DNA from: an archaeon UBA583
GTDB lineage: Archaea; Nanobdellota; Nanobdellia; Woesearchaeales; UBA583
DNA length: 64,000 nt
NCBI GenBank assembly: GCA_002506365.1
Contig: DAXK01000045.1
Location: 6,301-70,300 of the forward strand
Direction: 5' to 3'
The translations under genes and the position numbers were made by a program. Positions 9,872-52,105 of the stretch are shown in pieces; position 1 is the stretch's first letter, and each line of letters begins with the position of its first letter. Under the pieces are notes generated by a model, which was not told where the DNA came from, made no database searches, and saw only the letters and a list, made by a program, of their open reading frames with translations.

Positions 9872-10177
9872 ATGAGTGAATTCAAACAAGTGCTAGAAAT
9901 TGAAAAGAAATTTCAAAAAACTATTTCTACTGCAAATTCTAAATCTGAAACTAAAATTAATAAATCAGTTTCAGATTTAAAACTTAAAGAAGAAGCAATG
10001 AAAAAAGACTTAATTTCAGAATTAAATACTGACTTAGACAAACTAAAATCAGATTTAACAAAAAAAGGAGAACTGCAAGTTGAAAATTCAAAAAAAATGG
10101 CAGAAAATATTATTAAAACAGCAAACATCGATAAAGCTGTATCACACTTAGTGGGAGAATTTAAAAATGGCTTTTAG
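9872..10177 (+). CDS. atpH: A-type ATP synthase subunit H (stator stalk, coiled-coil)
   Basis: 101-aa charged coiled-coil protein lying immediately upstream of atpI and overlapping it by 11 nt, which is the canonical archaeal H-I-K-E-C-F-A-B-D order. Confidence 0.5.
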   Translation: MSEFKQVLEIEKKFQKTISTANSKSETKINKSVSDLKLKEEAMKKDLISELNTDLDKLKSDLTKKGELQVENSKKMAENIIKTANIDKAVSHLVGEFKNGF

Positions 10178-11918
10178 TCCAGCTTCAATGTCAAAAGTAA
10201 ATTTATTTGCTAGTTCAGATAAAATTACAGAAATTACAAATTTATTATATGATTTAAAATTAGTTCAATTTTTTGACTTAAAACAAGAAAACTTTGAAAA
10301 ATTTGAACATACTGACTTAAATGAGATCTCACACGAATTATTACAAACTAGATCATCAATCAGGCTACTTAAAAAATACTTTAAAGTAAACACAAACAAA
10401 CCTAATGAAAATGCAATTGATGAAATTTTAAAAGTTAAAACTAAATTAGACGATTTATTAAAAAAAGAAATTTCACAAAAAGATGAATTAAAAAGAACAA
10501 AACTTTTACTAGATTTAAAAGTAAATCCTAAAGATTTAACTAATGAAGATTTAAAAGTTGGATTTATTCCATCAAAAAAACAATTATTACTAAAAAAATT
10601 AACTGCAAATAAAATTAAATTTAATTCCCTAAAACAAGGAAAAAGAATTTATTTTGTATGTAAAACAAAAAAAGAATTAGACTTTGAATTCAAACACTTT
10701 TACTTACCTAAAAAATTAGATGAAAATCTAGAAACAAAATTAGAAAAAACAACTAAATCAATTAAAAAGGCAAATCTTGACTTAAGAAATTTATCAAACA
10801 ATAATTTAGAAAACTTAAGAGCAAAAGAACACCACCTAACAAAAGAATTAGAAATCTTAGAATCAAAACCAAATTTTGCAAAATCAGAAAACATTGTAAT
10901 TATTAGTGGACACATTCCAACAAACAAAGTAAGAAAATTAAAAGTTGAATTAGTTAGATTATTAGTTGATAAATTTGAACTTTCAGTTGAAAAAGCGACA
11001 AGTGATAATACTCCAATTAAATTAAATCATAATCAAGTAACTGGAAACTTTGTAGAATTATTAAAAATGTATTCCTTACCAAAATATAATGAAATTGATC
11101 CAACATTTTTTATCTTTTTAACATTCCCAATTTTCTTTGGATTTATTTTAGGAGATGTTATTTATGGACTAATCTCATTAATCTTATTTACATTTATGAA
11201 AATTAAACTACCTAAAATTAAAGAATTTTTATCCATTCTTCAATTATCTGCTGGTTCATCAATTTTCTTTGGAATTATCTTTGGAGAATTTATGGGTTAC
11301 GAAATTCACGGTTCATTTTACGGATTTTTAGCAAGAAGTCAAGAAGCTACAACACTTTTAGCAATTGCAGTTGTATTTGGTTTAATGCATATCAATTTAG
11401 GATTAATATTAGGATTTGTAAATGAATTATCAAATAAACATACAAAAAAAGCAATTTGTGATAAATTATCATTTATTATTATGCAAATTGGTGTTGGATT
11501 ATTAGCTTACGGGATTAGTGTATCATCTAATCTTTTAACAATTATTGGAAGTGTAACATTGTTTTTATCTTGCGCCCTAATTTACATGGGTCACGGATTT
11601 ATTGGAATTATGGAAATTCCTTCCTTTTTCACAAACATTTTATCATACGCAAGACTTATGGCAGTAGGATTATCCTCAGTTGTAATTGCAATGTTAGTTA
11701 ATCAATATACTGAATTATTTTTCAGTTATGGTGTTTTCGGAATTATTGGGGCTGTTTTAATGTTCTCAATCGGTCACACATTTAATATTGTATTGGGAAA
11801 CTTTGAAGGTTTCGTTCACACTTTACGTCTGCACTATGTAGAACAAATGACAAAATTCTACTCTGGAGGAGGAGAAGAATTTAAACCATTTGGACAAAGA
11901 AAAATCGACCAAGAATAG
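10167..11918 (+). CDS. atpI: A-type ATP synthase subunit I (membrane a-subunit homologue)
   Basis: Soluble N-terminal half plus a C-terminal multi-TM domain containing the conserved Arg helix (..SYARLMAVGLSS..). Position in the operon fits. Confidence 0.85.
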   Translation: MAFSPASMSKVNLFASSDKITEITNLLYDLKLVQFFDLKQENFEKFEHTDLNEISHELLQTRSSIRLLKKYFKVNTNKPNENAIDEILKVKTKLDDLLKKEISQKDELKRTKLLLDLKVNPKDLTNEDLKVGFIPSKKQLLLKKLTANKIKFNSLKQGKRIYFVCKTKKELDFEFKHFYLPKKLDENLETKLEKTTKSIKKANLDLRNLSNNNLENLRAKEHHLTKELEILESKPNFAKSENIVIISGHIPTNKVRKLKVELVRLLVDKFELSVEKATSDNTPIKLNHNQVTGNFVELLKMYSLPKYNEIDPTFFIFLTFPIFFGFILGDVIYGLISLILFTFMKIKLPKIKEFLSILQLSAGSSIFFGIIFGEFMGYEIHGSFYGFLARSQEATTLLAIAVVFGLMHINLGLILGFVNELSNKHTKKAICDKLSFIIMQIGVGLLAYGISVSSNLLTIIGSVTLFLSCALIYMGHGFIGIMEIPSFFTNILSYARLMAVGLSSVVIAMLVNQYTELFFSYGVFGIIGAVLMFSIGHTFNIVLGNFEGFVHTLRLHYVEQMTKFYSGGGEEFKPFGQRKIDQE

Positions 11919-12117
11919 ATTTTTATTTGTTTAAATTTTTGGACACTTTGCGAAAACATTGTTTTCACAACGGCTTAGAAATCTTCGATTTCTTGAAAGA
12001 AAAATCGACCAAGAATAGATTTTTATTTGTTTAAATTTTTGGACACTTTGCGAAAACATTGTTTCTTTATTTAAATTTTAATTTAAATCAAGGCTTAGAA
12101 ATTTACTAAATTTCTTG
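11896..12117 (+). repeat. Tandem direct duplication with an exact 100-bp period: the last 23 nt of atpI plus its downstream T-rich region is repeated
   Basis: 11896-11964 is identical to 11996-12064 (69/69 bp). The following segments are related (cggcttagaaatcttcgatttcttg vs aggcttagaaatttactaaatttcttg). Confidence 0.85.
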
Positions 12118-12244
12118 ATCACGACGGATTAAAATTAATAATTTTTTACTTTGTGATATTATTCACTTTTATTTTTTATAATAATTTATATTAATTTTCA
12201 AAAATAAATTATCTCAAAATAATAATATTTTAATAATATACTTT

Positions 12245-12658
12245 TTACTCTAAAATATCATCTAAAAATTTATCAAATAACATTGAAACATTACCTCGAT
12301 AAACAAATCTTTTATTTTCATTATACTTAAACTCAATCCCTTGAACTTTCACATTATCTACATTATAATCATGAGTTAACCTATACTCAACTCTAATCTT
12401 TCCTTGTTCACAATCAACCTGAATATAATCCTTTTTAATTGAGCAATAATCTAACACTCCACCCTTTTGAAATTTATCCTCTAAAAATCTTTCAAGACCT
12501 CCTGCCTTAGAAATATTGTTCATAATTCCCATTTGATTTTTTTCATTTGCTTTTTTATCAAAAACTTTTTTTTTACCAGAACTAGTTTCTTGTTTTAATC
12601 TTTTTTTTCTATCCTTATGTTTTTCCTTCATCTCTGAAACTTTATTTTGATAAGCCAT
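12245..12658 (-). CDS. Hypothetical small basic protein (137 aa) on the opposite strand, interrupting the ATP synthase operon
   Basis: ORF with a K/R-rich N-terminus and a C-terminal globular part; no recognisable motif. It sits between atpI and atpK. Confidence 0.45.
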   Translation of the reverse strand: MAYQNKVSEMKEKHKDRKKRLKQETSSGKKKVFDKKANEKNQMGIMNNISKAGGLERFLEDKFQKGGVLDYCSIKKDYIQVDCEQGKIRVEYRLTHDYNVDNVKVQGIEFKYNENKRFVYRGNVSMLFDKFLDDILE

Positions 12659-12764
12659 AAACTAGGTATGATTTTTAATATTTATTAAGTTAATTATTTA
12701 TTTCATCTATATAATCATATACTAAATAACAAGACTTATAAACCCTAAAGATTTTAAAACAATT

Positions 12765-16982: not shown

Positions 16983-16983
16983 T

Positions 16984-17060
16984 CGAAAATAATCTTTGAT
17001 TATTTCGACCTCCATCAACCATTGTGTTGATGTGAGAATCATTTACAAATCCATTGGATT
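16984..17060 (+). promoter_or_regulatory. Stable hairpins in the atpA-atpB intergenic region (possible attenuator or processing site)
   Basis: gtcgaaaataat-ctttg-attattttcgac forms a perfect 12-bp stem. A second hairpin follows: catcaac-cattgtg-gttgatg. Confidence 0.35.
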
Positions 17061-17095
17061 TGAAATGAATATCTAAAATTAAAAATAAATAAAAT

Positions 17096-23445: not shown

Positions 23446-23579
23446 AATTTAAAATACCAATTTTACAATATAAATAATTATTATAACTATTAAATAATAC
23501 CTAAATAAAAAATCACAATTCAAATTTAACTTTTAAATAAAAACAAATTATTATAAATAACCAAATTCAAATCTAAACT

Positions 23580-23912
23580 ATGAATTTAATTAAAAATTTA
23601 AAAAAGAGAGGTCAAGCTTTACCATTAAATACAATTGTAATCGCAATTTTAGTAATAATTGTATTATTAGTAATTATTGTATTTTTCACAACAGAAGTAG
23701 GTAAAACTGGTGATCAATTATCTGAAAACTCAGCATCTAGTTGTTCAATTTCAAATCCAGCACTAGCAACACTAGGTTACACAGGATTTATCTCAAAAGA
23801 TAAATTTGATCAAACTCCTGGAGATTATAAAAAAGCTGTTGGAGTTTCAGACTGTTATGTAAGTAAAACTCAAACTGATACTTGGACTGCTTCAGCTCCA
23901 ACTACAAATTAA
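23580..23912 (+). CDS. Type IV pilin-like protein (class III signal, KRGQ|A cleavage-type site)
   Basis: NLKKRGQALPLNTIVIAILVIIVLLVIIVFFTT has a basic leader, a G-Q-A cleavage-type site and a hydrophobic helix. Confidence 0.6.
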   Translation: MNLIKNLKKRGQALPLNTIVIAILVIIVLLVIIVFFTTEVGKTGDQLSENSASSCSISNPALATLGYTGFISKDKFDQTPGDYKKAVGVSDCYVSKTQTDTWTASAPTTN

Positions 23913-24036
23913 TTAATTAAAACTAATTAATTTTTTATAATTAAAACTAATTTTTCACACTATCAAATTTTAAACTTATTTTTTACTTCTAAAACTAAAA
24001 CTTAAACTTTAAAAACTAAAATAAATAAATCTCAAT

Positions 24037-24342
24037 ATGAAATTACTAACAAATTTTAGAAAAAACGCTCAAGCATTACCATTAAACACAATTGTAATTG
24101 CTATTTTAGTAATCATTGTATTATTAGTAATCATTGTATTCTTTACAACAGAAGTAGGAAAAACTGGAGAACAACTTTCAGAAAACTCAGCATCAAGTTG
24201 CTCACTATCAAATCCAGCACTAGCAACATTATATGACTCAATTCAACCTGTAGCTGAAGGTCAAACATGTGAAGATGCTGGTTGGGTCGACCACAAACTA
24301 GCTGGAATTGTTCCTGATTGTTGTGTAAAAAAACAAAATTAA
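24037..24342 (+). CDS. Type IV pilin-like protein, tandem paralogue of 23580..23912
   Basis: The first roughly 60 aa are nearly identical to the preceding gene (about 90% nt identity over about 180 nt). The C-terminal roughly 40 aa are unrelated. Confidence 0.6.
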   Translation: MKLLTNFRKNAQALPLNTIVIAILVIIVLLVIIVFFTTEVGKTGEQLSENSASSCSLSNPALATLYDSIQPVAEGQTCEDAGWVDHKLAGIVPDCCVKKQN

Positions 24343-35025: not shown

Positions 35026-35751
35026 ATGGGATATGAAATTTTATCAGATGATTTACTTCATAACAAAGATGAGGCAAACGGACCACCTAGATCTTCTTGG
35101 CTTAGAAAATTTATAGACAGAGTTAAATGGTTCAAATTACATTTATTTACAGTTTTAATAATTATACTAGGGATATTTTTATATTTTAATTTAGATTTAG
35201 ATTTTAATTTTGAAGATACCGAATCTGGAGTATTAACATTATCTGGAAACTTTAAATCATTTTCACAAAACTACACTGGAGATTTAGAAGTTGACTCAAC
35301 AAAATTTTCAATTTTAAGTCCATCTGGACAATTTGATGGAGAAACACAAACAATATTACTAAAAAATTTTTCAGGAACAATTAACCAAATAAATAAATCT
35401 ATTATATTTAATGGAACAACACAAACCTTAGAATTTGGTAAAAATAAACTAAACACACAAGACAAAACTTTTATTTTAACATCTACTGGAAAAACAAACA
35501 CAAAATTATTACTAAAAGAAATTTTCTTTGAAGAATTAAACGGAGCTGCTAAACTTGACAAAACACTAAACTATGAATTTGAAAATTCATCAATTAAAAT
35601 TTTTAACTTTAACACAAGTTTTGCATACGATGGAACTTTCACATTCTCAGGACAAGCTGAAAAATTTGAGATTATTTCAAACAAACATAATTTAAAAATT
35701 AACTTTGATAAAAACTCAACTAAACCAAATTCAGAAGAAACTTCTGAATAA
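35026..35751 (+). CDS. Hypothetical single-pass membrane protein (241 aa), divergent from the DedA-like gene
   Basis: N-terminal cytoplasmic stretch, TM LHLFTVLIIILGIFLYF, and an S/T/N-rich extracytoplasmic domain. Its last roughly 90 nt are duplicated downstream. Confidence 0.45.
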   Translation: MGYEILSDDLLHNKDEANGPPRSSWLRKFIDRVKWFKLHLFTVLIIILGIFLYFNLDLDFNFEDTESGVLTLSGNFKSFSQNYTGDLEVDSTKFSILSPSGQFDGETQTILLKNFSGTINQINKSIIFNGTTQTLEFGKNKLNTQDKTFILTSTGKTNTKLLLKEIFFEELNGAAKLDKTLNYEFENSSIKIFNFNTSFAYDGTFTFSGQAEKFEIISNKHNLKINFDKNSTKPNSEETSE

Positions 35752-35943
35752 TTTTTTTTGCCTCGTTTTTTAGAATTTTTAGCCAAAAGTGAGAAAGCCT
35801 CAAGATGGCTTTCGACCTGACGCGTATAAAAAATTCTTAAAAAAACGTGATTTGAGATTATCTCAAACAAACATAACTTAAAAATTAACTTTGATAAAAA
35901 TTCAACAAAACCAAACTTAGAAGAAACTTCTGAATAATTTTTT
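35665..35943 (+). repeat. About 93-bp direct repeats (3' end of ORF 35026 and a noncoding copy 186 bp downstream) bracketing a GC-rich roughly 93-bp island
   Basis: 35665-35757 and 35851-35943 align with 6 mismatches, mostly T/C transitions. The insert 35758-35850 contains gccaaaagtgagaAAGCCtcaagatGGCTTTcgacctgacgcg (a 6-bp stem with a 7-nt loop) in an otherwise roughly 25% GC genome. Confidence 0.7.
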
Positions 35944-36062
35944 ACCTTGTTTTTATTTAATTTAATTTCAAATCTTTAATTATTAATCTTATAATAATAT
36001 TCTAAACTACATTTATCACAATAAAATAAATAACTGAAACAATTAAATAACCAATAATCACT

Positions 36063-39000
36063 TTAATCATTTTTATCATCTCTCTTTAAATATTTTTTAT
36101 TATTAACAACATCTAAAGCCTCCAAAGTTTTTTTTTCATAATAATTATCCAATATCTCAAAAGTTCTTTTCTTACTAAAATTAATTTTATTATAAATAAA
36201 AAATCCACAAATAAACAAAATCAAAAATATGCTAATATACCCCTCAACCCTAAATGTTTGATTACTACTTAAAACCTTAATAACATTTCCTCCACTTAAA
36301 CTACTATTTGTATTATTATTAGTATTCAATTTATTCTCTCCAAAAAATCCAAAATCTAAACTATTCTTATCATTCAAAGTAATTTGCTCAGAATTCAACT
36401 CTAAAACAACCCCATGTTTTAATCCATAAATTAAATATAAATCATTCCAATTATCACACCTTAAACTATTAAAATATTTTCCATCACAAGTTAAAACAAA
36501 TTCATTATTTTCTAAACAATTTTCAGAAACATCACTAACACTATTTAAACTCCCTGAATACTTAACACAAACTTTATTCAAATTATTTTTATTTTTTAAA
36601 TAAATAACTGGATTTGTAACTAATTGAGTCAAACCTGAAACAATAACATAATTACTTTTATCACCTAACTCATCACTCACAATATTTAATGTTTCCAAAT
36701 TTAAATTAGAATAATTAAAATTAAACTCAAAACTAACTATCTTTAAATTATCAACAATTAAATCAATACTTTTAATACTCTCAAACTTAGAACTTTCATC
36801 AATTTTTTTTAAATCAACTAAAACATCAAAATTACTCAATTCATTAAAAAAAATCAAATTTCCATTTCCATCTCCACTATTAAAATTCTGAGTATCCACA
36901 AAAACATTATCCGAACTTAAAGATTTTTTTTTATTTTTTCTACTACTAGAACCTCCTCCACTACTTTTAACAACAGTAGAAACTATTTCACAACTCTGAG
37001 AAAGGTTCTCCCTTGTAAAACTAGTCCCGCAAGAGTTCAAATCAATAGCACTTCTTTTCATAACCCCATTATCACAACTAGACCAACTAGAATACTCCCA
37101 ACTCTCAGAACACATCTGATAAACTGCTGAATGAGTTAATCCTGAAACAAAAACAAATATTTTATTATCTTTATATTTTTTCTCCACCTCATAATTATTA
37201 TACTCAAATGGGAAGGAATTAACATAATACTCATAAGACCCATTACAACTCAAACTAAAATTAAAATCTTCAACAAAATTATCACTCAAACAAACTCCAG
37301 AATTCTTATTCTTATCACCAATTAACTCAAAACGAATAGTCTTACTCTCATTATTAGATAAATTAACTCCCGAAATAAATAATTTAGTTAAATTATTAAA
37401 ATTATTTGTTTCAAATTTAATATTTGATAAATTTATAGATTTATTATCATAAAGCTCAAAATTAAATCTATTATTTGAATTATTATCATAAAAATATAAA
37501 TTATTATTATTTCTCTCAACTGACAAATTCAAATTAATTTCTCCAAATAAACTCAAATTAAACTTATCTTTATCTAAAAATCTTTCAAAACTTAACTTAT
37601 GTAAAATAAATCCATCTAAAGTTTTTTCATAAATCTCAAACCCAAAAAAATAAATCTCAGGAGAAATATTAAAAACTCCATTATAAGAATTATTCAAAAC
37701 TTTATCCGATAAATCAATATACTTATTCTCAAAACCTAACTCTATATACTTAAACAAATTCCCATTTTCTAAAAACTCATCAGAAAAATTAATCTCAAAC
37801 TCAAACTCACTTTGATTACTTAAATTAAAATAAAATAAATCTTCATTATTATAACCATTCTCCTCAGACTCCCAATAACTTAAATTAATTAAATAATTAA
37901 ACTCTAAAGGTAAAATCTCTTTAATCTCAGAATTAACTTTAGAAACTACAACTGAAAATGATTGATTCTTTAAAGTTGTAATATTAAATCCATAAACAGA
38001 TAAACTATACTCTCCTAAAACCAATTCATCAGAATTTACAACAATTTGTTCAATATTATTTAATCTATCAAAATCTCCCTCATCAGAAAAATCATTCCCT
38101 AAATACTCAACACCATCCTCAGATACAACCCTTAAATCTAAATCATTAACTAAACCTAAACCAGGATAATCAGACCAAACCAAAGTTAATTTTAAATCTG
38201 AACTTAAATTTGTAACATTAAAACTATAATTAAAAACTCCTCCATGTCCAATCCCAACTAACTCATCAACAAATATTAACTCACGATTATTACTCTCATC
38301 AACAGAACCTTTCAAATCCACAACTCCAAAACCATAAACATTATCTGGTCCAACAACTCCATTATCCTTAGCCCCATTAATTAATGCAGCTTTAACCAAA
38401 CTTGAAGACACAACATCAAAACTTTTATTTTTAATTAAATACTCTCTAATCAAAGCACTAACTCCCGCAACTAAAGGTGCTGCCATAGAAGTTCCACTTT
38501 TACTTTGATAATCTCCAGACCCTGATGCAAAACTTGAACGTGTAGATGTAACAGAACTTCCCAAAGCCACAATATCAGGCTTAAACCTTCCATCCTCAGT
38601 TGGTCCACGAGAACTAAATCCAGCAATATTAAATCCATCTGAACTAGTTGCTCCAACCGCAATTGAATTTTTACTAGAAGACTGTAAAGTAACACTACTA
38701 CCTCCAGAACTCCCATAATTCCCTGTTGCCATAACAATAGTAAAATCAAAATTATTGTAAATAAATTCATCAATATCATAAGAATGAGATAAATATTTAC
38801 CCAAATTATTTCTATTTCCCCAACTATTAGAATGAACTCTAACTCCTTGATCATAAGCTGGACCAAATAAATTATTTAAATTATTTGGAATTGAAAGAAC
38901 ATATTTATTATAATAATTCCCACAATACATAGAATTATCACACAAAATCTCAATTGCTTGAAAAAATAATCCAGCTAATGGAGCAGTTCCAGATTTTGAA

Positions 39001-39617
39001 CTTGAAAAATTCCTACTAATAATGTCCGAACCTGACAAAACACCAGTCCCAACAGCAGACCCAGCTACATGAGTCCCATGCCCATTTACATCAGAAGTTC
39101 CATCATTATTTAAATTTCCATCTCCAACCTCATATAATATTACAGTTTTATTTCTAAAATCATTATGAATATTTGATAAATCTCCAGTATCTAAACCAGT
39201 ATCAGAAATTCCAATAATTTGACCTAATCCATACAACCCAAAATTATCAAAAAAATAATTAACATTCAAAAACTCTTTTCCCTCCACATTTTGTTTAACT
39301 GGGAAACTAAAATTTTCAACAAATTCAACATACTCAAGTTCGGAAATAATATTCACACTTAAACTATCTAAACCAAACCTAACTCTATTCTCAGAAACTA
39401 AAAATATTTCCCCTCCTAAATTTAAAATATTATTTGATAATTCTAAAACAAACTCATCAGAAGATAACTCAACTAAATAGACTTCAAAATCATTAGAATT
39501 CAAATTAATAAAATTATTATCATTAACTTGAAGTTTTTCATCATATTCACTAAACCCAAAAAAAAAAGAATTTACAAAAAAGATAAATAAAATAAATAAT
39601 TTTATTTTTTTTAACAT
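36063..39617 (-). CDS. Second giant (1184 aa) membrane-anchored subtilisin-like serine protease (S8), paralogue of 29563..34062
   Basis: GISDTGLDTG, HGTHVAGSA and GTSMAAPLVAG. It shares a Cys-rich module with the first protease (GLTHSAVYQMCSESWEYSSW..DLNSCGTSFTRENLSQSC vs GLSHSGVSQMCTEDWSYGSW..DLNSCGTSYTRESLVQSC). C-terminal TM plus tail. Confidence 0.85.
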   Translation of the reverse strand: MLKKIKLFILFIFFVNSFFFGFSEYDEKLQVNDNNFINLNSNDFEVYLVELSSDEFVLELSNNILNLGGEIFLVSENRVRFGLDSLSVNIISELEYVEFVENFSFPVKQNVEGKEFLNVNYFFDNFGLYGLGQIIGISDTGLDTGDLSNIHNDFRNKTVILYEVGDGNLNNDGTSDVNGHGTHVAGSAVGTGVLSGSDIISRNFSSSKSGTAPLAGLFFQAIEILCDNSMYCGNYYNKYVLSIPNNLNNLFGPAYDQGVRVHSNSWGNRNNLGKYLSHSYDIDEFIYNNFDFTIVMATGNYGSSGGSSVTLQSSSKNSIAVGATSSDGFNIAGFSSRGPTEDGRFKPDIVALGSSVTSTRSSFASGSGDYQSKSGTSMAAPLVAGVSALIREYLIKNKSFDVVSSSLVKAALINGAKDNGVVGPDNVYGFGVVDLKGSVDESNNRELIFVDELVGIGHGGVFNYSFNVTNLSSDLKLTLVWSDYPGLGLVNDLDLRVVSEDGVEYLGNDFSDEGDFDRLNNIEQIVVNSDELVLGEYSLSVYGFNITTLKNQSFSVVVSKVNSEIKEILPLEFNYLINLSYWESEENGYNNEDLFYFNLSNQSEFEFEINFSDEFLENGNLFKYIELGFENKYIDLSDKVLNNSYNGVFNISPEIYFFGFEIYEKTLDGFILHKLSFERFLDKDKFNLSLFGEINLNLSVERNNNNLYFYDNNSNNRFNFELYDNKSINLSNIKFETNNFNNLTKLFISGVNLSNNESKTIRFELIGDKNKNSGVCLSDNFVEDFNFSLSCNGSYEYYVNSFPFEYNNYEVEKKYKDNKIFVFVSGLTHSAVYQMCSESWEYSSWSSCDNGVMKRSAIDLNSCGTSFTRENLSQSCEIVSTVVKSSGGGSSSRKNKKKSLSSDNVFVDTQNFNSGDGNGNLIFFNELSNFDVLVDLKKIDESSKFESIKSIDLIVDNLKIVSFEFNFNYSNLNLETLNIVSDELGDKSNYVIVSGLTQLVTNPVIYLKNKNNLNKVCVKYSGSLNSVSDVSENCLENNEFVLTCDGKYFNSLRCDNWNDLYLIYGLKHGVVLELNSEQITLNDKNSLDFGFFGENKLNTNNNTNSSLSGGNVIKVLSSNQTFRVEGYISIFLILFICGFFIYNKINFSKKRTFEILDNYYEKKTLEALDVVNNKKYLKRDDKND

Positions 39618-39643: not shown

Positions 39644-39844
39644 AAACATCATTTTAAACTAAAACACTCAAAACTAGACTTTCAAAATTTAATCTTTATT
39701 CATTAAAAAGTTAATTATTCTTAAAAATTACACAGTAATTTTCTAGGTTTTCTTGGCGAGACTTTCTTTTAGCGCCCAAAGGTAAGCGTCCAAAAGAAAG
39801 ATCATATCAAACATCATTTTAAACTAAAACACTCAAAACTGGAC
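39644..39844 (+). repeat. 36-bp direct repeats (aaacatcattttaaactaaaacactcaaaact[a/g]gac) bracketing a roughly 130-bp insert with a GC-rich core
   Basis: 39644-39679 and 39809-39844 differ at one base. The insert contains ggttttcttggcgagactttcttttagcgcccaaaggtaagcgtccaaaagaaag, which resembles the island core at 35780-35815. Confidence 0.6.
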
Positions 39845-41920: not shown

Positions 41921-42166
41921 AGAATAAAAATAAAATTATACATTTAAAAATAAATGTATTTAAAAAAAGGAAAATACAAAATTAATTTTAATTTTTTAAC
42001 GTTCGTAAACTCCCTAAAATTAAAAATAATTTAAAATTTATGAATTTCTCAGATTTAGAGAAATTCTTTATATAGATTTTTTTTAACAAACATTATTTCA
42101 TTAAAATCCGCACGAACTTCGTCCGCACTAAAATTTTAATTCATAATCATTGTTAAAAAAATATTT

Positions 42167-51967: not shown

Positions 51968-52105
51968 TTTCTTAACACTTCGTTAAAATTATTTAGAATT
52001 TAAATTAATATTTTTCGCTCGATTTCCGCGAAAAAGAAATATAGTATTTTTATTTCTTCTCAATTCTTCCGCACTTCGTTTGTCGAAATCAGAAGAATTA
52101 AAAAT

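Follow-up and report, generated by a model that had tools for sequence, protein, structure and literature searches.

The stretch analyzed here comprises 64,000 nt of archaeal DNA (contig DAXK01000045.1, positions 6,301 to 70,300; hereafter the window, with positions in its own numbering), in which a gene for a 241-aa predicted membrane protein is followed by a short folded segment, the element E, and then by a second copy of the gene's own 3' end. The GC content is ~25% across the window and 14.9% in its intergenic DNA. Its archaeal genes include an A-type ATP synthase operon, a gene for a class III signal peptide pilin-like protein and genes for S8 proteases, and the nearest named relatives of its proteins are Nanoarchaeales/Woesearchaeota metagenome-assembled genomes (MAGs). 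In a Pfam scan covering 50 window proteins, no family was assigned to the 241-aa host protein, whose orthologues in related archaea exhibit 54-90% identity. The features of this site (locus 1), including matches to the covariance models (CMs) R1 and R2 built for the family of E (family 1), are as follows:

35026..35751, + strand: host gene from the open reading frame (ORF) list, encoding the 241-aa predicted membrane protein
35664..35757, + strand: repeat copy 1 (A1), the gene's last 88 nt with its TAA, plus 6 T
35749..35852, + strand: family-1 element E, CM matches of 127 bits (R1) and 121 bits (R2)
35764..35780, + strand: outer-stem left arm, T-rich (CGTTTTTTAGAATTTTT), defined by the fold and by pair changes
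35781..35827, + strand: GC-rich conserved core with the apical hairpin, 46% GC, near-invariant between the window and the Nanoarchaeales MAG DT_72
35828..35847, + strand: outer-stem right arm, A-rich (AAAAAATTCTTAAAAAAACG), defined by the fold and by pair changes
35850..35943, + strand: repeat copy 2 (A2), a displaced gene 3' end with its own TAA at 35935-35937

The direct repeat (35664-35757 versus 35850-35943) extends over 94 nt with 94% identity and a spacing of 186 nt. A first-pass annotation made from the letters alone had reported that the 3' end of ORF 35026..35751, stop codon included, recurs 186 nt downstream with 6 mismatches, and this is confirmed over the 94 nt. Both the 3' end and the stop codon of the host gene are intact in A1, and A2 carries an in-frame TGA just upstream of its TAA. 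The six mismatches between A1 and A2 consist of pyrimidine transitions (T/C three times and C/T twice) and a single T/A, and five of them are synonymous, third-position differences (P ~0.02 under a model keeping mutation types). When the two 186-nt units were aligned, a weaker similarity ran ~13-20 nt beyond the stop and then ended; TRF reported no tandem repeat at this locus. The segment following the displaced stop (35935-35965, TAATTTTTTACCTTGTTTTTATTTAA) is similar to the opening 30 nt of E (TAATTTTTTTTGCCTCGTTTTTTAGAA), a likeness that could stem from target mimicry, from microhomology or from the remnant of an older copy. Across locus 1 the JGI/NCBI contig is matched at 100% identity by a Logan assembly built independently from SRR1023996.

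Composition and fold of the element

The insert proper, between the two repeat copies (35758-35849), measures 92 nt with 36% GC, and its best 50 nt reach 46% GC, compared with a mean of 16.6% (sd 8.5%) among the intergenic 50-nt windows. In GC content this places it second among the intergenic spots of the window, behind the insert of locus 2 described below. Because ~1% of all 50-nt windows, coding DNA included, attain the same 46%, the island is striking for intergenic DNA and not genome-wide, so that the earlier description of a strikingly GC-rich insert holds in the former sense alone.

The hairpin previously noticed in the insert (AAAGCC-tcaagat-GGCTTT) is present, and it proved to be the tip of a longer hairpin with AT-rich arms, in which GAAAGCC (35793-35799) pairs with GGCTTTC (35807-35813) across the tcaagat loop. 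The fold of locus 1 received a z-score of -2.4 for the + strand and one of -3.2 for the - strand. The outer arms pair over 16 bp, and this inverted-repeat pairing is kept in all aligned members of the family. The structure contains 28 pairs, with 100% of cells paired in three sequences, and six of the pairs were changed on both sides as against none in slid controls, a count that leans towards structure, the three sequences having been aligned by fitting them to the model. Four outer-stem pairs changed on both sides had already emerged from two sequences, the window and DT_72, in an independent MAFFT/RNAalifold run, and a further compensatory change occurs in the apical stem of a copy from another related archaeon (L030), where GCC/GGC is replaced by GUC/GAC. 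The G-U pairs of the structure form in the sense strand only. The UGA and CGA flanking the apical hairpin are possibly arranged as a tandem G-A internal loop.

Across its copies E folds into a long imperfect hairpin whose 5' arm is T-rich and whose 3' arm is A-rich, with a conserved core between them that is richer in GC and carries a 7-bp apical hairpin. On its 5' side lies a T-rich zone at or just after the stop codon, and every copy ends with an A-run and then (C/G)GTG or GTTG, running straight onto repeat copy 2. The 3' junction at all loci is fixed on the element side and exhibits 0-4 nt of microhomology and small indels. In the window, E starts at the TAA with its T-run and ends with the A-run and CGTG, directly abutting repeat copy 2.

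Several classes of structured sequence were tried and rejected as identities for these segments. ARAGORN found no tRNA, split tRNA or tmRNA, and no Rfam family reached its gathering score in the window, with only chance-level matches at E <= 10 around the three loci. A C/D box small RNA (sRNA) was discarded, as the C-like GUGAGAA becomes GCNAGAA in DT_72 and AUGAAGA in the related locus L012 and only 21 nt separate the boxes; a paper on Pyrobaculum C/D sRNAs describes a transposon-like spread of sRNA genes and no comparable architecture. Inspection by eye revealed no RYYYAAC/GTTRRRY boxes of the kind expected for an integron attC site.

Copies, empty sites and further families

The search for further copies combined scans of large collections, which used exact matches only, with CM searches in ~200 kb of related DNA, in which the compared loci from related archaea carry labels such as L003, L011, L012, L027 and L030. 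An exact-match scan with 22 nt of the core over one genome per species recovered one further genome, DT_72, to which L027 and L033 belong, and the remaining members are CM matches in related loci fetched for other reasons. E was found in this way at six loci, behind four unrelated host genes and in six Nanoarchaeales/Woesearchaeota lineages:

Window, 35749-35852: behind the 241-aa gene; direct repeats of 94 nt, 94% identity
L027 (DT_72), ~110 nt: behind an unrelated 149-aa gene; direct repeats of 149 nt, 99% identity
L012/L013: behind atpF; direct repeats of ~37 nt, 79% identity
L033 (DT_72): behind atpF; direct repeats with a 70-nt identical core
L030/L031/L032: behind a 66%-identical orthologue of the window host gene; direct repeats of 88 nt, 91% identity
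L036: behind Dus, an old copy (27.5 bits); direct repeats of 87 nt, 74% identity

Every copy stands behind its host gene in sense orientation, flanked on both sides by direct repeats, 37-149 nt long, of the 3' end of that gene. The further copies that had been sought thus exist behind other genes in other genomes, always between gene-end repeats. The repeats have decayed in the old copies (atpF of L012 and Dus of L036), as would be expected of relics. The filled structures recur across assemblies, with three sources for L030-L032 and three for L033-L035. In L030, positions 10797-10943 form a composite in which a family-1 core and an H-type hairpin (see below) stand inside one outer stem, which suggests, from the sequence, one mini-element nested into another. 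The contigs L028 and L029 end 36-55 nt past an orthologous gene of the 241-aa type, hinting at a similar repeat there.

Sites that lack the element are found among close relatives. At L003, where the host protein is 90% identical, the stop codon is followed by 110 nt of AT-rich DNA and then by the same downstream S8 protease gene, with no duplication, no GC island and no covariance-model match. In the window, 125 nt separate the stop of A2 from the next gene, in agreement with the 110 nt at this empty site, and the comparison indicates that the extra 186 nt are specific to the lineage of the window. L003 is therefore an empty site of the kind that the first-pass annotation had proposed to look for in relatives, free of both element and duplication. 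Likewise, the covariance model found no E behind atpF in the window or in L014, which makes these two further empty sites.

The same layout of repeat, element and repeat recurs in no fewer than two other families, one of the locus-2 type and one formed by the H hairpin. Locus 2 lies in the promoter/5' region of a minus-strand S8 protease gene (36063..39617) and consists of:

39644..39679, + strand: repeat copy 1, 36 nt
39680..39808, + strand: insert of 129 nt, the family-2 element with two hairpins (159 bits with the family-2 CM, R3)
39809..39844, + strand: repeat copy 2, with 1 mismatch

This agrees with the earlier observation of a second locus at 39644-39844 with the same architecture. A family-2 homologue of 105 nt occurs in L012 (4795-4905) behind the arginyl-tRNA synthetase (ArgRS) gene, between 24-nt repeats of the ArgRS end; the window and L012 copies have two hairpins in common, with compensatory changes, and the ArgRS end of the window, which carries no family-2 element, is an empty site. 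The core sequence that the inserts of loci 1 and 2 had been thought to share is not supported by the comparison, as BLAST produced no match between them and the family-1 covariance models, run with filters off, produced no locus-2 match at E <= 10. On these sequence comparisons, loci 1 and 2 belong to two distinct families, and for each a homologue of its own exists elsewhere. The earlier proposal of a family of miniature elements with long target duplications accordingly stands as regards copies, empty sites and fold, and fails as regards the grouping of the two loci into one family.

Two observations concern the surroundings of locus 2. The Logan contig of SRR1023996 (L001) stops at window position 39673, inside the 36-nt repeat, which is expected because its assembly graph used k=31. 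A homologue search with the N-terminus of the S8 protease (38568-39617) gave nothing at E <= 1e-40 and missed the query itself, probably owing to a word-index limit on low-complexity sequence.

Taken together, the family-1 and family-2 loci exhibit flanking repeats of 24, 36, 37, 70, 87, 88, 94 and 149 nt. All eight have the repeat-element-repeat layout; none is without repeats and none has two elements. The idea that the repeats come in multiples of ~36 nt, as histone or Okazaki spacing would give, was dropped when further lengths did not fit.

A window-wide repeat scan revealed a third repeat-element-repeat locus, absent from the list of the first-pass annotation, at the end of atpI (10167..11918):

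11896..11964, + strand: repeat copy 1, the last 23 nt of atpI with its stop, plus 46 nt of 3' untranslated region (UTR)
11965..11995, + strand: insert of 31 nt with the H-type hairpin H1 (GGCTTAGAAATCTTCGATTTCTTG at 11972-11995)
11996..12064, + strand: repeat copy 2, 69 nt, 100% identical to copy 1
12092..12118, + strand: H2, an older diverged H-type hairpin, at a place colinear with the only H in the closest relative

H2 stands 100 nt further downstream. The H hairpins follow the form GGCTTAGRAAT...ATTYCTTG, and their homologues were found downstream of atpI in L011, DT_72 and L036, as well as nested in the family-1 element of L030. The closest relative, L011 (AtpI 92% identical), has one gene end and one H with no duplication. 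In L036 (11709-11987), three head-to-tail units of 93 nt, 95-97% identical, each contain the last 23 nt of atpI with stop, UTR and H; this array is a minisatellite built from the gene end. The atpI region of DT_72 (L033, 7735-7970) comprises its own gene end, an H, a window-type end (AAAGAAAAATCGACCAAGAATAA), two more hairpins and its own end again, an arrangement also seen in L034 and L035. The stop codons are exchanged there, the active end having TAG and the window-type relic TAA, which is exactly the outcome expected from a crossover within the shared CAAGAATA. One and the same H|AAAG junction is found in the window, DT_72 and L036. The native hairpin of L011 and the array of L036 imply that the phenomenon is partly an amplification of units and not fresh insertion.

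In the window the ATP synthase operon is split by 846 nt (11919-12764) between atpI and atpK, where relatives have 198-335 nt. This gap holds a minus-strand 137-aa ORF (12245..12658) with no family assigned, and DT_72 has a glycoside hydrolase gene in the same place. The idea that the ORF is a relocated copy of a 137-aa ORF of L012 was rejected, the two not being homologous.

Proposed insertion, amplification and exchange between lineages

The best explanation for these sequence patterns is that family 1 would represent ~100-nt, non-coding, non-autonomous mobile elements of Nanoarchaeales/Woesearchaeota, which belong to the DPANN archaea. We hold with moderate confidence that the island at locus 1 is a mobile element whose insertion is coupled to a long duplication, and with much less confidence the details given below. 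The presence of the same element sequence behind unrelated genes, combined with its absence from the orthologous sites of close relatives, indicates that the element itself moves. The position of the element between two direct copies (24-149 nt) of the sequence 5' of it leaves the host gene with an intact 3' end. Moreover, the finding of one element between two repeats at all eight loci argues against a tandem duplication followed by loss.

In the mechanism that we propose, an enzyme supplied in trans would insert the element at widely and variably staggered breaks or at a single-strand gap. The T-rich 5' end of the element would join the T-run of the terminator by microhomology, its defined 3' end would join the other strand 24-150 nt upstream with little or no homology, and gap filling would duplicate the intervening stretch. 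The gene end together with the element would then behave as a repeat unit, expanding and contracting by unequal crossing-over, and the unit could pass to the same gene of related lineages by homologous recombination in the gene end, giving rise to allele-like displaced ends. With its runs of T on either strand, the element might also serve as a portable stop for transcription in both directions, which would render it harmless to its host. More tentatively, these sequences might define a new archaeal class of mobile elements: hairpin modules without an enzyme of their own that exploit single-strand gaps or widely staggered breaks, perhaps at replication forks or by way of an RNA copy, and that spread between lineages as cassettes.

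The contribution of recombination is visible in the displaced ends. The displaced copy of L030 still has an open frame, with a different plausible C-terminal tail, and this tail, the synonymous differences between A1 and A2 and the atpI arrangement of DT_72 jointly indicate that units spread by homologous recombination between related lineages and that they grow or shrink in number by unequal crossing-over. The allele-like ends come close to the copy-and-paste repair that had been offered as an alternative to insertion, in that they point to homologous recombination.

A number of observations weigh against insertion of a mobile element. The 50 proteins compared with Pfam include no transposase, integrase, HUH/Y1 protein, reverse transcriptase or Cas1 within the 64-kb window. 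The displaced ends are allele-like, unlike fresh gap-fill duplications, so that a second process must be added. We know of no prokaryotic element with target duplications this long or this variable, although no systematic search for one was made. The resemblance of the A2 tail to the 5' end of the element renders the exact 5' boundary ambiguous, and the atpI/H locus looks like a plain tandem duplication with amplification. In DT_72, the insertion behind the 149-aa gene would have taken place inside the coding region, if the native C-terminus ends ...KPKTKKTETKKED. The copy number is low, the ~200 kb of related DNA holding about one copy every 25-30 kb; the exact-match scans of whole collections yielded the single further genome DT_72, a core-pattern scan of JGI metagenome contigs gave chance matches only, in GC-rich bacterial genes, and three scans of viral contigs found no E. 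Additionally, BLAST of the three insert cores against the window and the first ten loci returned no other copies, and a search of translated E against a library of 1.84 billion proteins, aimed at spurious ORFs over copies, returned only two irrelevant repeat proteins.

An account without any transposition, which we regard as rather unlikely, takes the hairpins to be native 3'-UTR/terminator structures at whose base errors of replication or repair cause microhomology-mediated tandem duplication, the remainder being the work of unequal crossing-over and of homologous exchange between lineages. The atpI locus fits this account, through the single gene end with its H hairpin in L011, the three exact head-to-tail units of L036 and the H|AAAG junction common to three genomes; some microhomology at the junctions and the frequency of intergenic hairpins in the window also fit it. 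A duplication of gene end plus hairpin should, however, yield two hairpins, whereas the eight E and family-2 loci each have one, and the same element stands behind the 241-aa gene, the 149-aa gene, atpF and Dus and is absent from the orthologous sites of relatives. At locus 1 itself a simple tandem duplication was rejected, as the similarity of the 186-nt units is lost ~20 nt past the stop and the element is single. A route through RNA appears unlikely to a somewhat greater degree. Here the element would be co-transcribed in the host 3' UTR, reverse transcribed in trans and inserted by target-primed reverse transcription or cDNA-mediated repair, either of which can give variable duplications and carry along the 3' end of the donor gene. 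This would suit the sense orientation behind the host gene at eight of nine loci, the fold kept by compensatory changes with G-U pairs that work in the sense strand only, the A-rich 3' tail, the variable repeat length (24-149 nt), the small indels at the 3' junction that look untemplated and the allele-like displaced ends. Reverse transcriptases of diversity-generating retroelements (DGRs), which are common in DPANN archaea, are known there. Nevertheless, the window contains no reverse transcriptase, the T-runs of the 5' arm should stop archaeal transcription before the core is reached, and the three to five other bases that follow the A-run mean that it is not a terminal tail.

The remaining explanations fare considerably worse. 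Remnants of integrated plasmids or viruses, in which an integrase made the att duplication and the body was later deleted down to ~100 nt, would account for repeats of 24-149 nt from gene 3' ends, which are typical of attL/attR, and for the intact gene, yet they would require the same folded ~100-nt remnant to have arisen independently at six loci; the repeats of different loci have no common core sequence, no integrase was found nearby among the window proteins compared with Pfam, and we judge this origin very unlikely. An artefact of assembly or amplification, such as a strain-chimeric contig or a chimera of multiple displacement amplification, seems highly improbable. The allele-like differences between A1 and A2, the older whole-genome shotgun record (AYRE01) from which the sequence derives and the break of a Logan contig inside the locus-2 repeat all raise this suspicion, against which stand the base-for-base agreement of two independent assemblies at locus 1, the lack of any 31-mer common to A1 and A2, the recurrence of this architecture with elements that are homologous, in unrelated samples and with different assemblers, and the decayed repeats of old copies. 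The recurrence of a ~90-nt repeat just downstream of a gene's 3' end recalls the variable and template repeats of a DGR, an explanation to which we assign practically no weight, and which was rejected because the mismatches are not adenine-specific in either copy or strand and five of the six are synonymous; moreover, no reverse transcriptase lies nearby and the same layout recurs at ATP synthase and ArgRS genes. Ectopic integration by Cas1 in the manner of CRISPR was also rejected, the window having no Cas1/Cas2 in the Pfam comparison and the repeats differing from locus to locus (24-149 nt), and the inserts are homologous across loci, unlike CRISPR spacers.

Known mobile systems and other hairpin-bearing regions

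MITEs, the miniature transposable elements with inverted repeats, resemble E in being small, non-coding, non-autonomous and mostly intergenic, with hairpin-capable inverted arms, several copies and direct-repeat flanks. MITE target duplications measure 2-10 bp and are fixed per family, and one Woesearchaeal genome ranks among the most MITE-dense archaea (PMC11602168). The E and family-2 duplications, by comparison, extend over 24-149 nt and are variable, and no insertion sequence that could be their parent through matching ends came to light, the 50 window proteins including no transposase. Furthermore, unlike MITEs, the arms of E co-vary as a helix instead of being conserved as protein-binding sites, and its orientation is fixed relative to the upstream gene.

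A likeness to repetitive extragenic palindromic (REP) sequences and REPINs lies in the extragenic ~100-nt hairpins, often just behind genes, that are non-autonomous and may act on transcript ends. REPINs are known from bacteria, make no target duplication, reach hundreds of copies and are associated with a RAYT gene. E differs from them by its long flanking repeats and low copy number, and the window encodes no Y1/HUH protein. REP/REPIN elements are mobilised by RAYT (Y1/HUH) transposases (PMC3116915).

The retention of an intact host gene by means of a second 3' end, with the original end lying downstream in allele-like form, is reminiscent of integrative elements and of an insertion in a fungal mitochondrial gene. 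Integrative elements at tRNA-gene att sites and the insertion in mitochondrial atp6 of Allomyces carry a copy of the 3' end of their target gene. Those elements are kilobases long and bring their own integrase or endonuclease, whereas the inserts described here span 31-250 nt and hold no gene. The stacked 3' ends, exchanged by upstream recombination, also resemble the orphan modules of CdiA-CT and Rhs toxin loci, as a comparison with the atpI region of DT_72 illustrates. Unlike those toxin/immunity modules, which are under diversifying selection, the ends displaced here are those of housekeeping genes (ATP synthase, ArgRS and Dus) and encode nearly the same peptide. Duplications of variable length, a body structured like an RNA, a 3' region rich in A and the need for an enzyme acting in trans are shared with retroposons lacking long terminal repeats (non-LTR) and with short interspersed nuclear elements (SINEs), which to our knowledge do not occur in archaea, and from which E is set apart by the absence of a reverse transcriptase in the window, of a terminal poly(A) and of an evident internal promoter. 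Finally, the GC clusters and double-hairpin elements of fungal mitochondria are likewise GC-rich palindromic mini-elements of AT-rich genomes, located in intergenic DNA and at gene ends, but they make duplications of only a few bases, reside in another host lineage and have no sequence relation to E.

DPANN archaea have tiny genomes and are thought to hold little mobile DNA. If the proposed interpretation is true, structured mini-elements by which 3' ends of housekeeping genes are repeatedly doubled and shifted downstream would add a new way for genomes to change in this group, with false short ORFs from displaced ends, contig breaks at the repeats and chimeric gene ends as consequences. The target duplications would be ten times those of known prokaryotic transposable elements, which suggests either that insertion follows a chemistry not yet described or that hairpins are used by a repair pathway, and the mode of transposition would have no described prokaryotic counterpart; a search of the accessible literature turned up no description of long target duplications in archaeal mini-elements. 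The two covariance models would provide a searchable marker for DNA movement between uncultured, host-dependent cells, and the allele-like displaced ends would record past recombination between lineages. Should the elements terminate transcription in both directions wherever they insert, this would also matter for the way in which transcripts are ended in archaea of very high AT content.

Other regions of the window attracted attention during the analysis. At 23579-24240, two small paralogues lie in tandem (23580..23912 and 24037..24342), have no Pfam family and are 84% identical over their first 205 nt. Three consecutive stable hairpins (16983-17070) fill the spacer between atpA and atpB, with a minimum free energy of -33 kcal/mol over 126 nt and no flanking repeat. 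Two intergenic regions, 42060-42150 and 51968-52105, are hairpin-rich and relatively GC-rich, and both contain the motif CCGCAC..TTCGT (at 42108 and 52069; chance 0.03); judging from these features, they may be further small elements or sRNAs.

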